Assembly (NCBI GenBank): GCA_046757665.1
Contig: JBHHYO010000005.1
Coordinates: 8,983-72,982 of the forward strand
Origin: Nitrospinales bacterium
GTDB taxonomy: Bacteria; Nitrospinota; Nitrospinia; Nitrospinales; JAJDAT01
Reading direction: 5' to 3'
DNA: 64,000 bases
Shown: one piece after another, positions 38,209 to 44,600 of the stretch
Layout: each line of letters opens with the position of its first letter
Numbering within the stretch: position 1 is the stretch's first letter
Notes under the pieces: model-generated
What the model saw: only the letters and a program-made list of their open reading frames with translations
What the model was told of the DNA's origin: nothing
The model's database searches: none
Position numbers and translations under genes: made by a program

Positions 38209-41007
38209 CTAAATCTTATTACACTTACCCAAAATCTCAGCAATGTCCGAAGGCGCAAACGAGACGCCCCACATCCATTTGCCAAACCCACCGTGCTGGT
38301 TAACAGCCTTCACCCACTCATCCAACGCATTTCTTTTCGTTTTTTCTTTTTGGGTGTCCTGTCCCTTAACCTCAAGCACAAGCATCTCTCCATTTGTCAG
38401 CCGAATCAGGAAATCGGGCCGGTACTTGTGAACAACTCCTTTATAAACATAATGTATCTCAAAACCGAGATGGTCGTTTTTGACCCACGCCGCAACATTC
38501 TTTTTATCATTTTCAATGTGGAAGGCTTCCGTGGATTCCCACGCGCTGTCAAACACACAAAAATTAATATGCGACCGTTTAGTACGCTCGCACGGCTTTC
38601 CTGAATACCAGGGAAGCATGTCTCCCGTTGACCGAATCGGGTTTTCGGAATCGAATACGGGAATCAACTCCAGTGAGTTATCAAAATTAATCGTCTCCCA
38701 AATATGATGCACCAGATTAGTCATGCGAAGAATCAAAAGAATTCGCTTTCTCATGGGGTCCTGATTGAACAGAGGAGGGGTGATTTCTACTCTGTCGGAA
38801 TTGATGAATTTTTCCACCAGACAGATGACCTGGCCCAGCAAATATTCCCGGTTCCCCTTTTCTTTCCAGCCGGATTTCATTTGGTCAAAGATGCTCGCCG
38901 ATACTTTGAATATGATCCTCTGTAGTCGGGATTCCCGCCCTAATTTCTCAAGGGCAATTTGGCTTATTTTGGTTACGTCCGGCTTTCCCGCAATGGTAGG
39001 GGCCATTTCCGCCAGTTCTATGATTTTGCTGGCGTCAATTCGCAAAAGGTCAACCTTTTCCAAGTCAAGTTCCAGTTTCGGCTTGTAAACATGGTTGATC
39101 CGGATAATATTCGGCCAGGATATTTCAAATTCCTTTTTCTCCACAACAGGTTCGATCCTGGTTTTAGGAGTCGGGGGCGGTGGCGGCGGACCGTCGCCTT
39201 CCTCATGCGGCAAAAATGTAAAAGGGACTCCAAAGATATTCACATATTCCGCTTGAAACAAACCATCGGAGCCAACCTCATACGATGTTCTTCTTAACCC
39301 GCGCCCTATCACTTGTTCACAAAGCAACTGGCTGGAAAACGCTCTCAGTCCCATAATATGCGTGACGGTTTTTGTGTCCCATCCCTCCGAAAGCATTCCC
39401 ACGGAAATCACGTTTTGTATCTTTCCCCCAAGCTTGCCAATATCCCCGATGGTATTAACTTTTTGACGAAGTATTTCCGCCGCTTTCTGTTTGGTTATTT
39501 TCGGTTTGAATTTTTCGTCCGTCCCCTCATCGCCGTCGTCGCCATTAAAAAATACCGGCTCTTCCACTTCCTCCGCTTTTTTTAAGACACTGGAATCAAT
39601 ATGAAGAGTTAAATCCGGATTGCATAATTCATCGATATCGATCTTTCCTTTATCGAATGAATATTTTATCCGCGCCGCGGTTTCAGTGCGATTGGCTACC
39701 GTAATCATTACGGGAGGAGCCTCCAGTTTGCTCTTCTTCCAACTTTTTGCCGTTTCCCTCCAATCCAGCCCCAACAAAAGATAGGCATTCAAAACGAGGT
39801 CGGGAAGCGGCTCCTGTTCTTCTGCTTTCTTGTTTAGGCCATCCTTGACTTCATCGGCCATGTAAAGGTGGTACAGTTTGGATTTATACGTTTTGGCGTC
39901 GGGGACGGCATCGTCCCGCACCACCACTCTGGGGGTTTTTACCAGCCCGGATTCAATAGCGTCGTTCAGTCCAAAATCGCTGACAACCCAGGGAAACAAA
40001 GCCTCTTCCCGCGCCTGTTTGCCGGAAGGGGCGAAAGGGGTGGCGGAAAGATCATAACAGGTCAATATCCCCCTGGCCTTATGGATTCGGTCCAGCCCGC
40101 CGAGCCACTTGGTAGCCTCCTCAATTTCTTCCTTCTTCACATCGCGAATCTTCGATTCGGCGGGAACCCGCCAGGCGTGATGGGCTTCGTCGTTAATCAC
40201 CAAAATGTTGCGGGCATTGGCCATGTCGCCCAAAACTTCCCGCACATAGGCTTCATCACTTTTAGCTCCCCGCTTATCGACGCCTTTTTTCCTGGCGATT
40301 CTTTCTTCCTCTTCCCAGTTAAGCTTATGCCAGTTGTGAATGCGTATTTTCCCCTGCCGCAGTTTTTCCCGAAGACCCAGCGGAACGATATTAAATTCAT
40401 CGTAATAATTGCCTTCTCCCGAATGATGTAAAACCTGCAAACGGCTTTTGACCGTCAGGCCGGGGGCCACGATGAAAACATATTTTGAGAATCGCTTGTC
40501 TTGCGGGTAGGTGACTTTATTGATGACTTGCCAGGCGATCATCATTGCCATGACAATGGTTTTGCCGGAACCGGTCGCCATCTTGGAGCAAAGGCGGGTG
40601 AAAGGACCGCCGTCATCGGGGACCGCAATCCCCTGCCTTTCCGCCGCCGGGGCTTCATTGAGCCAGATCAGGGTTTCAATGGCTTCCAGTTGGCAGAAGA
40701 AGAATTTACGATGATCCCGCTCCTCCTCATTTCGCCAATGCTCCAGTAGCCTTTTGGTGATGCCGGTAACTCCGGGATACCCCGCCTCCCGCCACGCCTT
40801 TATACGGGGTCTGATTTTATTAACCAGGGGAAGCTCAATGAATTGGCCGGGATCGTCGAAGGACTTGGAGCCGGGCGTGGCGACTACATATCCGGCGGGC
40901 CGCCGCCCTTCTTCCTTGGAGAATAAACGGGTCTCGCGGTCGTATTTCCAATACCTGGCAGGCTCTTTGTACGGAGAGTTGATAATGAGTTGGTCAATTT
41001 GTTTCAC
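38209..41007 (-). CDS. res: Type III restriction enzyme Res subunit (DEAH helicase + PD-(D/E)xK nuclease)
   Basis: FFCQLEAIET, KMATGSGKT, INDEAHH, SATP, MLSEGWD, EQVIGRGLRR, YRPDFL...LEVKG. Confidence 0.9.
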   Translation of the reverse strand: MKQIDQLIINSPYKEPARYWKYDRETRLFSKEEGRRPAGYVVATPGSKSFDDPGQFIELPLVNKIRPRIKAWREAGYPGVTGITKRLLEHWRNEEERDHRKFFFCQLEAIETLIWLNEAPAAERQGIAVPDDGGPFTRLCSKMATGSGKTIVMAMMIAWQVINKVTYPQDKRFSKYVFIVAPGLTVKSRLQVLHHSGEGNYYDEFNIVPLGLREKLRQGKIRIHNWHKLNWEEEERIARKKGVDKRGAKSDEAYVREVLGDMANARNILVINDEAHHAWRVPAESKIRDVKKEEIEEATKWLGGLDRIHKARGILTCYDLSATPFAPSGKQAREEALFPWVVSDFGLNDAIESGLVKTPRVVVRDDAVPDAKTYKSKLYHLYMADEVKDGLNKKAEEQEPLPDLVLNAYLLLGLDWRETAKSWKKSKLEAPPVMITVANRTETAARIKYSFDKGKIDIDELCNPDLTLHIDSSVLKKAEEVEEPVFFNGDDGDEGTDEKFKPKITKQKAAEILRQKVNTIGDIGKLGGKIQNVISVGMLSEGWDTKTVTHIMGLRAFSSQLLCEQVIGRGLRRTSYEVGSDGLFQAEYVNIFGVPFTFLPHEEGDGPPPPPPTPKTRIEPVVEKKEFEISWPNIIRINHVYKPKLELDLEKVDLLRIDASKIIELAEMAPTIAGKPDVTKISQIALEKLGRESRLQRIIFKVSASIFDQMKSGWKEKGNREYLLGQVICLVEKFINSDRVEITPPLFNQDPMRKRILLILRMTNLVHHIWETINFDNSLELIPVFDSENPIRSTGDMLPWYSGKPCERTKRSHINFCVFDSAWESTEAFHIENDKKNVAAWVKNDHLGFEIHYVYKGVVHKYRPDFLIRLTNGEMLVLEVKGQDTQKEKTKRNALDEWVKAVNQHGGFGKWMWGVSFAPSDIAEILGKCNKI

Positions 41008-41351
41008 GTTTCTTTGGTTCGAAGAATTTTTTCAAGTTCATCCGCCAAGGGCGGCAGGTCCTGGATCACCGTATTCCACACCACGTCCAGGTTGATGTCG
41101 AAATAGGCATGGATCAGCCGGTTTCTCATGGTAACGATATTGTCCCAGGGGATACGGGGAAATTTCTCCCGGCATTCCTTGCTCAACCGAGACGCCGCCT
41201 CGCCGGTAATTTCAATGGACTTGACCAGGGCCAGCGCCAGCATCCTATCCGTGTCAAGCTCTTCCCGGCTCCTGTTGTGGGCAAAGGAAACCGCTTCCCT
41301 GGAGGCATCAAGCATGTGTTGCAGGCGGACCAGGTCCTTCCTATCGCACAT
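41004..41351 (-). CDS. HEPN/DUF86 (HepT-like) RNase toxin
   Basis: IEITGEAA, IPW..I..MRNRLIHAY (Rx4HxY), VW. Confidence 0.9.
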   Translation of the reverse strand: MCDRKDLVRLQHMLDASREAVSFAHNRSREELDTDRMLALALVKSIEITGEAASRLSKECREKFPRIPWDNIVTMRNRLIHAYFDINLDVVWNTVIQDLPPLADELEKILRTKET

Positions 41352-41649
41352 ACAGCGCCTCCGCGGATTCCACGACCTCCTTGCGGAAGTACCGGCTCAA
41401 GTCCTCGGGCGTTCTCAAGTCCACTTTTCGCCCGACGATTCCGCCCAGCTCGATTTCCATGCCGGAAAGTTCGATCAGGCCCGGAACGTGGCCGGGCTCG
41501 AACTCCACCAGCACGTCAACATCGCTTTCCGGACGAAAATTTTCGCCCAGAATCGAGCCAAACAGCGAAAGCTTGCGGATATGATTTCGCTTGCAGAAGG
41601 GAGCAACCTTGTCCTGGGGAATACGGATTTTTTTGCTTGCCGAAATCAT
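41341..41649 (-). CDS. Minimal nucleotidyltransferase (MNT, MntA-like) antitoxin
   Basis: LFGSILGENFRPESDVDVLVEF (GSx10DxD), GRKVDL. Confidence 0.9.
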   Translation of the reverse strand: MISASKKIRIPQDKVAPFCKRNHIRKLSLFGSILGENFRPESDVDVLVEFEPGHVPGLIELSGMEIELGGIVGRKVDLRTPEDLSRYFRKEVVESAEALYVR

Positions 41650-44600
41650 GCCTCTACCTTTAATATCTTCAAGCTCTCGATTCCCCGGTCATCGACGATC
41701 TTGACCGCCACCTGCCCGTGCTTTCCGGGTTCAAATGGCAGGGATACCGTTCCCCGGTAGGCTTCGATCAGTTCCTCGTCAATCTCGGCCCTTAAATTTT
41801 TCGCCAGCCGCGACCAGCCGTCTTTTTCGCCGGACATGGGGAAGAATACTTGCCGGGGGTACAGGCTCCTTTCATCGTAATCCATGTCCAGCATCCACAG
41901 GGCGATCTTCCCGGTGTCGCCCGACTCAATGGCTCCGGTCCTGGTGTTGTAGTAATCGAATCCATGCACTTCCACCTCGAATTTTCCCTTGTCCTCCCCC
42001 TTGCCGATTCGGCGAAGCTCCACGTCCGGCTGGCCGATCAGCCAGAACGACTGGTTGCCGGAGCGTCTCTTTTTGAGGTCGTCGGTCAGCAAGTCGGTGT
42101 TCATTTGCACCTTGAGGAAGATCATACCGGTTTTTTCTTCCGTCAGTTCGTCAATGTCTTTTGCCGCTTCCGGATCAAACTGGAACGATGCGAAGAGGAT
42201 GATGGCGGGCTTGGGAATCAGGGCCCGGGCTTCATGCCAGGCCATCTCCACCTGTTTCTGCTCCAGCGGCGCGTGTTCCGGACCGTAGGAAATGACCACC
42301 CTCTGCGGCTTGCCGTAGATGACATCTTTTTCCTTGACCGTATCCTTGCCCTTGTCGTTGGGCCGGGTCTCGGCGTCGGCATGGAGCCAGCGCGTGCCGG
42401 CCAGCGGCTCGACGCGGGAGAACAAAATCATCTGCCCGTTCTTGCCGCGCACCCCGGTTTTTAGCAATTCGCTCCGCCATTCATCATGACGTTGCGTTTC
42501 TCCCGATCTTGCAACCGACTCATCGGCGTCAAATCCCCTCTCCCCATGGGAGAGGGTTGGGGTGAGGGCATCATAAATACTCTGCAACACCCCTTCTGTC
42601 TGGGCGAACACCTCGTTATTCCAGAATCGCAGGACATGAACACCTTTTTGCTCGAAAAAAGCCGTGCGTTTCCGGTCGTCGGCCTCCCTTTTCGGCTCGT
42701 TGTGTTGACCACCGTCGAGTTCGATGCCCAAGCGCGCCTCGTGGCAGTAAAAATCCAGAACATAGGGATCAACCGGGTGTTGCCGCCGAAATTTGCATCC
42801 CGCCAGGCGGCGGTCGCGCAACAGCGCCCAAAGCAGTTGTTCCGCCTGCGTTTGTTCCTTGCGGAGTTTGCGCGCAAATTCCAGAAGATCGGCGGGCAGG
42901 GGTTTCTTCCCCTCACCCTTCCCCCTCTCCCCATGGGAGAGGGTTGGGGTGAGGGCTTCCTCTAATGGTTTGACCATCGGGGCGGGCACGGCCTCGACGG
43001 TGAACGGGCCGGTGACCCTGGCGCGGGATTTATCCAGTTCAGGCTGATCGTACAGGGTTTCCCGTCCAGGCGGCTCGTTGTTAGCGATGGATTTCAGGGT
43101 GATGTGCGGCACCGTCTTGTAAACGAACCCGCTCCCCACCCCCTCGTCCGGGTGCGCCAGCTTGTAATAGTCGTACAAGGCCGTCATGATCCTCTGCTTG
43201 GCCAGCGTGACGGCAACTCGTGAAGTATCGCAGGTAATCCACCGCCGCCCCCACTGCTCCGCCACGTACGCCGTCGTTCCCGAACCGCAAGTCGGATCGA
43301 ACACCAAATCGCCGGGGTCCGTCGTCATGAGGAGGCAACGCTGGATTACCTTGGTCGAAGTCATCACAACATACCGGACACCTTCATTAAATCTAAATAC
43401 CGTGGTGTCCTCCCATAAATGGGAAAGTCCTTGATATGGAAAATCTTCGATATAACGTTTATAACAAAGGCGTTTTTCGCCACGAATCACTAATCTTTTT
43501 AATTGCTTTAATCTATCTAGGCCCTCGATAGAACAGCTCCAGTGTCTGTCTTTCCCGGGGTGAAAACATTTGTCCTTGTATTCATAATTAGTGGTTCTAT
43601 TTGGAGAAGGATTTTGGGAAGTAAGGTCAGACATCCAAAAACGCTTTCCATTGGGAATTGGTTCAAAACCCTCCAACTGTTTTTTAGTAAGCGCACACCA
43701 TGTACCATTCGGCTTTTCCACATATTTATAATTTTCCAGAATGGCATCCCTGGGTTTTGGAATGAAAAGCGAACGATACTTCACATGTTTTTTTTCCTTT
43801 CCATACCAAAGAACATAATCCATAACTGTAGGGATGAGGTTTGATGTTGCGCTACTGGTTTTTACAAATTGGATTTGGGAACAAAAATTTTTTACCCCAA
43901 AAACCTCATCCATCAAATTTCGCACGAGGTGCACATTCTCGTCGCTGATCTGCACGAAGCACGAGCCGCTTTCGTGGAGCAGTTCGCGGGCCAGCAGTAA
44001 GCGGTCGCGCAGGTAAGTCAAATACGAGTGAATCCCCAGTTCCCAGGTGTCGCGGAAGGCGCGGATCATTTCCGGCTCCTGGTTCAAGTCGTCGTCCTTG
44101 CCGTCCTTCACGTCCCGCTTATTGACGAACGGCTGGAAATTGGAGCCGTATTTGATGCCGTAAGGCGGGTCGATATAGACCATCTGCACCTGTCCCGCCA
44201 TGCCCTCCTTCTCCAGCAGGGAGTTCATGACCAGCAGGGAATCCCCGGCAATCAACCGGTTCGACCAGTTATGGGCGTGTTTGTAAAAGTCCAGAGCTTC
44301 TCTTAATGGCGGGTTTTCCTCCGGCGACTCGAACAATCCCATTTGCCCGTGGTCGTTGCCGTTGCGCCTTTTAACGGCTTCCATGACGGTTTTGGGGTCC
44401 ATGCGTTCATGAACGTGCAGGGAGACGGTGGGGACTTCAAAACTGGTATGCTCGGTTTTCCCTGCCCATTGCAGGGCGGGGTCGAGGTGGGGATCGTAGG
44501 AGTATTTCTTCTTGCCCGATTCTTTATCCGTGGCGGGAGTGACGAGTCCTACCGGAGGGTTGTTCTTCCGCTTCTTGTCCTCATGGCCGTATTGTTCGAT

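Follow-up and report, generated by a model that had tools for sequence, protein, structure and literature searches.

Vsr-like (EDxHD) homing endonucleases such as I-Bth0305I are carried, in the accounts cited here, by group I introns or inteins, or are found between split inteins, and they are excised from the RNA or protein product of the gene that they occupy (PMC3239194; PMC2677866). In the case of the Rickettsia palindromic elements (RPEs), palindromic repeats of ~150 bp lie in frame in unrelated genes and are translated with them; these elements occur only in Rickettsia and are not linked to any enzyme (PMC10969869). In REPIN-RAYT systems, cognate palindromes border an enzyme gene and also occur as dispersed doublets (PMC3337134; PMC3116915). 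The enzyme, RAYT, is a HUH/Y1 transposase, usually single-copy, extragenic and vertically inherited (PMC3337134), and GTAG/CGTC tags are named for the palindromes in the title of PMC3733652. Inteins, finally, are in-frame selfish inserts with an endonuclease domain, often in conserved genes. Here we analyse a window of 64,000 nucleotides (nt; the whole stretch of DNA under study) from a Nitrospinales bacterium (assembly GCA_046757665.1, contig JBHHYO010000005.1, positions 8,983 to 72,982). At 42535-42956 of this window, a DUF559 (PF04480) nuclease cassette bounded by hairpin-forming repeats lies in frame in the gene of Mod, the methyltransferase of a type III restriction-modification (RM) system.

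The cassette recalls each of these systems and departs from all of them. Its catalytic fold is related to that of the Vsr-like homing endonucleases, one precise site is sporadically occupied in orthologues in a pattern incongruent with the host tree, and a DUF559 domain also lies within an insert, intein-like by eye, of another Mod homologue (P0119). Unlike these endonucleases, the cassette has no splicing element, stays in the protein, is bounded by conserved hairpins and has derivatives without an open reading frame (ORF); its cleavage activity is presumed. As in the RPEs, palindromes are translated in frame in unrelated genes, but here a nuclease ORF lies between them and their range extends over many phyla. 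The likeness to REPIN-RAYT is seen in relatives rather than in the window's own genome and, unlike RAYT, DUF559 is a PD-(D/E)xK nuclease, often multi-copy and often in frame inside genes, with hairpins that lack the tags. In contrast to inteins, there is no Hint domain, the insert starts with ALTPT and ends with GERG before an F, without splice-junction residues, and it resides in a disordered linker by prediction and not in an active-site motif. DUF559 itself has been grouped with Vsr in a survey of PD-(D/E)xK enzymes (PMC3424549), and the papers found by our searches, one with passages on YcjD included (PMC1189080), neither assign a mobile role to DUF559 nor mention these hairpins. As a search outside subscription journals and supplements found no published account of hairpin-bounded or in-frame DUF559 cassettes, the kind of cassette described here is apparently undescribed.

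Results

A repeat-bounded insert in Mod

The insert is delimited by an exact 35-bp direct repeat, the two copies of which lie 387 bp apart, start to start. The match extends to 38 bp with one mismatch, and none of 100 dinucleotide-preserving shuffles of the window contained two or more matches to the repeat. Both copies hold the palindrome CCCTCTCCC-CAT-GGGAGAGGG. An original prediction, made from the sequence alone, had placed at this locus a DUF559 endonuclease cassette between identical palindromic repeats; the repeat, the palindrome, the doubled peptide ALTPTLSHGERG and the enclosed DUF559 motifs all have the coordinates and content it gave them. The identity of the bounds holds for the 35-bp copies and stops at their flanks, the upstream copy being arranged as tail-hairpin-tail and the downstream copy as tail-hairpin. 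As single-stranded DNA, the nested 46-nt hairpin of the upstream copy is predicted to fold at -20 kcal/mol (z -4.4; equalled by 0 of 200 shuffles) and the downstream copy at -10.9 kcal/mol (z -2.3; equalled by 3 of 200). The two core hairpins are direct copies, and an imperfect inverted pair is formed only by the hairpin plus its tail.

The hairpin is free of stop codons in all frames and encodes PSPxGRG, PLPxGEG or TLSxGER(G/E), according to the reading frame. At the junctions the translation reads E followed by ALTPT and GERG followed by FDA, and neither a Hint or intein domain nor splice motifs were found in the insert by Pfam scan and inspection of the junction residues. As the cassette has neither start, stop nor splicing motifs, it is translated as part of Mod, with a net gain of 137 amino acids (aa) relative to the common 18-aa linker of this protein. 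The comparison with an intein that does not splice, which the original prediction had drawn, is therefore a fair analogy.

Presence and absence in Mod homologues

The domain is not part of canonical Mod, as had been supposed: PF04480 is absent from 100 of the 120 best Mod homologues (~850-880 aa), the three nearest orthologues included. It lies in the same alignment block in 19 Mods, namely the window Mod (P0001) and 18 others, and this block is the linker between ...VEAVPAPxVK and D(E/A)S(V/I)ARSGET, whose commonest length is 18 aa. In a Mod tree from which the insert columns were left out, P0001 groups with three insert-less Mods (99*) within a 43-member clade (100*), the other 42 members of which are without the domain; the remaining 18 carriers are united in another clade, together with one insert-less Mod (P0068). 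The tree requires at least three changes between presence and absence. Monophyly of the carriers is rejected by an approximately unbiased (AU) test in IQ-TREE (delta lnL 255.9, p-AU 8e-7), which was run on 44 of the 120 rows, picked to span the clades, for a group named after the first tree had been seen. The site is thus polymorphic for the insertion, and the trees indicate that the lineage of the window Mod gained the cassette separately from the other carriers, at the same site.

The empty site that was to be expected in orthologues is present in the nearest Mods as a linker of 18-20 aa, the same position being filled by DUF559 in the 18 other carriers. Over 50 aa on each side of the insert, the window Mod shares 84-94% identity with its insert-less neighbours, as against 54-82% with the carrier clade; the boundaries of the insert are therefore clean. 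Clean linkers of 18-20 aa are found in P0002, P0005, P0007 and P0068, with no hairpin footprint in any of the four, and a peptide motif search of the 120 Mods found hairpin motifs at the linker site only in the 19 carriers. Among 68 metagenomic Mods with both anchors, the linker, as delimited by tblastn anchors, measures 45-204 bp and is always a multiple of three; none of the 68 has DUF559 there, and three have a solo hairpin. In a full-length AlphaFold model of the window Mod, otherwise mediocre (mean pLDDT 63.5), the DUF559 domain reaches pLDDT 83-93 and residues 533-580 and 703-719 fall below 40, which places the cassette in a linker that is predicted to be disordered and is hypervariable among homologues.

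A Vsr-like nuclease domain with a predicted fold related to a homing endonuclease

By sequence and modelled fold, the cassette is a clear member of DUF559, the family of YcjD and of the crystal structure 3hrl. The Pfam match is strong (E 1.2e-37; 128.6 bits against a gathering cut-off of 20.6) and covers model positions 4-108 of 109, and 3hrl is recovered with phmmer at E 6e-21. An alignment of 31 DUF559 sequences defines 12 invariant columns (the FRRQ, DF, E.DG..H, D and R.W core), all of which are kept here (W43, F56, R57, R58, Q59, D68, E79, D81, G82, H85, D94 and R110). The model of the cassette alone (pLDDT 88.7) has 3hrl as its best Foldseek match (E 4.6e-8, TM 0.89 on the target). In the PDB, the homing endonuclease I-Bth0305I follows as the next-best match through its catalytic domain (3r3p chains A/B, E 1e-4 to 3e-4, TM 0.75-0.78), which is, on the model, the closest characterised fold after DUF559 itself.

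Vsr proper is only a distant fold match, the E. coli protein (1vsr) aligning weakly with the model (Foldseek E 0.08). No Vsr model appears among the Pfam hits of Mod at E<=0.01, so that the domain is not assigned to the Vsr family, and the host methylase is of the N6/N4 type, as opposed to the cytosine methylase beside which Vsr nicks T/G mismatches.

Hairpin and nuclease as a local unit

Flanks of DUF559 genes were compared at 80 loci from species-representative genomes, which span Pseudomonadota, Chloroflexota, Nitrospirota, Verrucomicrobiota, candidate phyla and one Bathyarchaeia bin; 70 of the loci have full flanks, and at 27 of these DUF559 forms part of a long open frame. Within 220 bp of the gene, the hairpin is present upstream at 48 of the 70 loci, downstream at 48 and on both sides at 37, as against 7 of 255 control windows taken ~1-2 kb away. 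In its family form it reads CCCTCTCCC-loop-GGGAGAGGG and frequently bears a tail of the GGGGTGAGGG type, and the stem variant on one side of a locus matches that on the other (as at L024, L012, L064, L048 and L080). Where flanks score at least 20, they are inverted at 30 of 74 loci and direct at 18. Genomes of the same order as the window contributed nine loci, at six of which the hairpin stands on both sides of a free-standing DUF559 gene. With the same hairpin found next to DUF559 genes in numerous phyla, hairpin and nuclease form a recurring local unit, and the idea that the two belong together, put forward in the original prediction, is upheld by these flanks and by the duplicated unit described next.

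In one complete relative genome (G037), a unit of 457 bp is found 100% identical at two loci with unrelated flanks, as expected of a recent duplication. It consists of tail, hairpin, a 119-aa DUF559 protein with its own ATG, hairpin and tail, with ends of ~40 bp. A second pair of copies in the same genome is 97% identical over 508 bp. DUF559 is the sole ORF of the unit, which thus encodes no known transposase. Two further genomes (G020 and G017) hold 13 doublets without an ORF, which align as tail-hairpin-12 nt-hairpin-tail and have the same ends as the gene-bearing unit. To judge from these alignments, the identical units of G037 and the ORF-less doublets are the strongest signs of mobility that we found. 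A simple transposon with terminal inverted repeats whose tails point inward was considered as a description of the unit and is contradicted by the outward tails of both the G037 unit and the doublets.

For most of the 13 doublets (L094-L106), the sequence immediately upstream is a stem-loop resembling a terminator, GAGCC-TTCG-GGCTC with TTTT after it. This stem-loop may belong to the element itself; alternatively, the doublets may favour sites adjacent to terminators.

The cassette family and its host proteins

With the 141-aa cassette as query, phmmer matched 25,638 cluster representatives at E<=1e-3, of which 186 reach E<=1e-30. Among the best 150 of these relatives, a list skewed towards relatives of the window cassette, 87 are at least 250 aa long, with the DUF559 domain mostly internal, and 111 contain the hairpin peptide motifs PSPxGRG, PLPxGEG or TLSxGER (searched with regular expressions), usually on both sides of the domain. 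The other Pfam domain of the 87 long relatives is most often HsdS (27), followed by class I tRNA synthetases or their tRNA-binding domains (8), type IIG or N6_Mtase enzymes (Eco57I/MmeI/N6_Mtase; 6), N6_N4 Mod (4), type ISP (4) and helicases (RecG, Mfd, DEAD; 3); 17 are other enzymes, among them Maf, FtsJ, Ham1, EPSP synthase/NUDIX, CobT, a class III aminotransferase, a histidine kinase, IGPS, OMP decarboxylase, MetH and GNATs, and 18 have no second Pfam domain. These matches make the cassette a member of a large family spread over many unrelated host proteins, in agreement with the proposal that the unit enters genes in frame.

When 172 cassette cores are placed in a tree, those from the same kind of host gene group together (21 of 23 Mod, 23 of 27 HsdS and 5 of 8 tRNA synthetase cassettes), with 63 host-label changes against a shuffled mean of 101 and no value as low in 200 shuffles; the tree has weak support over 112 columns, and relatedness alone yields some clustering of this sort. 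The window cassette falls among the Mod-borne cassettes, with a best identity of 75% (P0015). A viral collection revealed no clear phage route of spread: its 53 loci, on mostly short contigs, reach a best identity of 55%, and 56 of 166 candidate stretches were confirmed.

Several DUF559 domains may occur in one protein. There are three in tandem in P0130 and two in the Eco57I-like P0144, and P0203 is a further example.

Other inserts in Mod proteins

The Mod homologue P0119 carries, at residues ~455-766, an insert of 312 aa that splits the S-adenosylmethionine-binding motif between DPTC and GSGTT and has a DUF559 domain inside. This insert begins after C and ends with HN before a C, and is the one that looks intein-like by eye. 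In the linker that the cassette occupies in the window Mod, P0119 has a solo hairpin peptide. In P0003 and P0004, the DUF559 domain is followed by 2-4 tandem copies of a ~17-aa unit (ALTPTLSQGEREFTAYD), so that the 3' hairpin repeat can expand in tandem; these two proteins also have solo hairpin peptides elsewhere, after positions ~95, 502 and 882 in the numbering of the window Mod.

At the loci L111, L113, L149, L168 and ~20 others, the same linker of Mod holds other recurring peptides (e.g., ...ADFRHAATPLLDAS and ...GEGPAFSSS...), which suggests that other small repeats also use this permissive linker. Another insert of ~120-140 aa, without Pfam annotation, is found near residues 884-892 of the window Mod in P0022, P0076 and P0098, and may be a different inserted element.

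Operon, features and assembly

Mod has its N6_N4_Mtase domain at residues 155-485 (Pfam). The type III assignment follows from this N6/N4 methyltransferase adjoining a restriction subunit (Res) with a ResIII helicase (Pfam, NCBIfam); Res matches the NCBIfam equivalog NF046055 (BPTD_3080 family restriction endonuclease) at 1101.9 bits, above the cut-off of 800. Within this operon, mod and res are separated by a pair of genes for an MNT nucleotidyltransferase and HepT. Coordinates are collected in Table 1.

Table 1. Positions in the window of the cassette, its repeats and hairpins, the host gene and the neighbouring genes
Feature	Position	Strand	Basis or remark
Cassette: repeat, DUF559 ORF, repeat	42535..42956	-	In frame, without own start or stop
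DUF559 (PF04480), Vsr-like PD-(D/E)xK nuclease domain	42564..42884	-	Mod residues 590-696
Repeat copy on the 5' side of the nuclease (coding sense)	42922..42956		Encodes ALTPTLSHGERG, residues 566-577
Repeat copy on the 3' side of the nuclease	42535..42569		Tail-hairpin only; encodes ALTPTLSHGERG, residues 695-706
Core hairpin, upstream copy	42923..42943		9-bp stems, 3-nt loop
Core hairpin, downstream copy	42536..42556		
Nested palindrome, 46 nt, tail-hairpin-tail (CCCTCACCCC .. hairpin .. GGGTGAGGGG)	42910..42955		Extends the upstream repeat copy
Mod host gene, beta-class N6/N4 DNA methyltransferase, 1001 aa	41646..44651	-	ORF and translation; insert read straight through
MNT/HepT toxin-antitoxin pair	41004..41649 (MNT 41341-41649, HepT 41004-41351)	-	Pfam NTP_transf_2/Polbeta, HepT-like
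Partner restriction subunit (Res), ResIII helicase-nuclease, 932 aa	38209..41007	-	Pfam ResIII

The source genome is a bin of 2.97 Mb in 160 contigs, 97.6% complete, from hydrothermal-vent metagenomes. Logan unitigs holding the locus were found in two runs, both of which may be the source sample; their depth over the cassette and over the flank is 13.8 vs 17.7 in one run and 11.7 vs 13.6 in the other. The unitigs are interrupted at the 35-bp repeat, whose length exceeds their word size, and positions 42980-43400 are poorly covered.

Discussion

In this study, we have described a stretch of Mod that is very probably an inserted cassette derived from a mobile element. The reading that we prefer goes further, and we regard it, with its mechanism included, as on balance probable: the insert would be one copy of a widespread selfish cassette that spreads in a homing-like manner and is read through without splicing. 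According to this proposal, the unit that spreads would be a nuclease ORF of ~110 aa bounded on both sides by a conserved GC-rich hairpin. The nuclease would nick or cut DNA at or near its own hairpin, or at the unoccupied allele, and repair templated by the occupied site would then install the cassette by homing-like gene conversion. Most of the spread would take place between alleles of the same host gene, and such copying would explain both the shared site in Mod and the clustering of cassettes by host gene. An occasional landing at a new site would explain the many hosts and the identical copies in G037, with survival only of in-frame landings in tolerant loops; these could be read through because the hairpin is free of stops and the ORF needs neither a start nor a stop of its own. 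The ORF-less doublets would be non-autonomous derivatives of the cassette, and the two 35-bp direct repeats would permit an in-frame excision that leaves one hairpin behind.

Several observations weigh against this reading. No target-site duplication is visible at the two G037 insertions, no cleavage site was seen, and the orientation of the tails is inconsistent, as they point inward at many loci but outward in the G037 units and the doublets. In 41 related genomes, the presence of the hairpin and that of DUF559 are unassociated (both in 19, hairpin only in 9, DUF559 only in 11, neither in 2), and the link between them is therefore local, not genome-wide; the co-occurrence that the original prediction expected is thus found in the immediate flanks and not in the presence of the two across genomes. 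In this comparison DUF559 relatives of all subfamilies were searched for and found in 30 genomes, and a loose hairpin pattern, which represents one hairpin variant only, was found in 28, with 0-50 copies in each genome and 0-1 matches per genome for a reversed control pattern; the strict pattern (3-nt loop, at most one mismatch) matches in 5 of the 41, since the relatives have 5-nt loops, and the looser one was used instead.

Three of these genomes, G008 (22 hairpins), G015 (25) and G016, have 7-25 matches and no detectable DUF559 relative, which also counts against the preferred reading. The hairpins there may be non-autonomous copies left without a nuclease partner, or may rely on some other factor.

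The window's own genome has no further copy of the 35-mer (allowing up to 8 substitutions), of the hairpin core or of DUF559, so that no activity is shown there and the search for additional copies proposed at the outset came back empty. No close donor of the window cassette was found. Identity of its core to other Mod-borne cassettes is 61-75%, a divergence about equal to that of the host genes, and a GC content of 0.562 puts it level with the window (0.56); because of the missing near-identical donor, this divergence and this composition, we take the insertion to be old. A useful domain would likewise be expected to stay at one site with its catalytic residues intact, as this one does across an 18-member Mod clade, and about half of the long hosts are RM proteins. 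The choice of group in the AU test, the skew of the best-150 list and the weakly supported core tree have to be counted on the same side.

True transposition is the foremost alternative and in our opinion an unlikely one. DUF559 would here act on the hairpin ends as a transposon enzyme, excising or copying the unit, in-frame residence would be what selection has left over, and the system would resemble RAYT with REPINs or IS200/IS605 TnpA acting on hairpins. The identical 457-bp units at unrelated loci, the ORF-less doublets, the hairpin matches of up to 50 per genome against the near-empty reversed control, the dozens of unrelated host genes and the ~40-bp inverted ends at 30 of 74 loci are all in its favour, and RAYT genes are likewise typically flanked by multiple REPINs (PMC3337134). 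The missing target-site duplication and the hairpin-rich genomes without DUF559 speak against transposition, and the clustering of cassettes by host gene is better accommodated by allele-to-allele homing. Moreover, no PD-(D/E)xK nuclease is known to perform strand transfer on its own; TnsA only cleaves.

Domestication would account for the same locus in a different manner, with DUF559 as a working part of the RM enzyme (an additional nuclease, a nickase or a regulatory module) and the hairpins as relics of its arrival. The intact invariant residues, the confidently folded model, the persistence at one site in the carrier clade and the presence of HsdS, Mod, type IIG or type ISP domains in 41 of the 87 long hosts are what such a function would lead one to expect. 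Nevertheless, the nearest Mod orthologues work without the domain, and the same type of cassette sits in tRNA synthetases, CobT, IGPS, OMP decarboxylase, MetH and other proteins in which no role for a nuclease is apparent. The two 35-bp repeats remain perfect despite a divergence of the cassette of at least 25% from any relative, and the domain is tethered by linkers predicted to be disordered. We therefore consider domestication improbable.

It is harder still to maintain that the ancestor of these Mods had the cassette and that recombination between the repeats removed it many times. The direct repeats would indeed permit an in-frame deletion, the insert-less P0068 stands inside the carrier clade, and a solo hairpin occupies the site in P0119 and in 3 of the 68 metagenomic Mods. 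Deletion should, however, leave one hairpin behind, and the linkers of P0002, P0005, P0007 and P0068 bear no such footprint; hairpin peptide motifs at the site are confined to the 19 carriers of 120, and far more events are required than the two gains that would otherwise suffice, all of which makes repeated precise loss very improbable. That the cassette of another organism was joined into the Mod contig through the shared repeat during assembly can practically be set aside for, although the source is a metagenome bin whose unitigs break exactly at the repeats and hairpin-bearing contigs of other organisms abound in the same samples, the depth of the cassette unitig tracks that of the flank in both runs, the reading frame is preserved across the insert, and the same architecture recurs in 18 other Mods, some of them on contigs of 2-5 Mb.

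A broader claim, which we put forward tentatively and consider rather doubtful, is that DUF559 is the sole protein of an unrecognised class of mobile element, consisting of a hairpin-ended unit of ~0.45 kb and its ORF-less doublets, whose nuclease would recognise its own hairpin and which would persist across bacterial phyla and some archaea, often as a translated, non-splicing domain in working proteins and hence, in effect, as a protein-resident transposon or homing element. The DUF559 family is very large and has been assigned no function; a selfish lifestyle linked to the hairpin would, if true, give it a role that can be tested. It would also explain many odd annotations of DUF559 fusions, as well as the low-complexity PSPxGRG, PLPxGEG and TLSxGER stretches in RM subunits, tRNA synthetases and metabolic enzymes, and might open a new source of sequence- or structure-specific nucleases. 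At the window locus, the perfect 35-bp repeats predict an in-frame excision of 387 bp. If the selfish lifestyle is real, simple toleration in a loop would join introns and inteins as a third means by which an endonuclease gene can reside within an essential gene.

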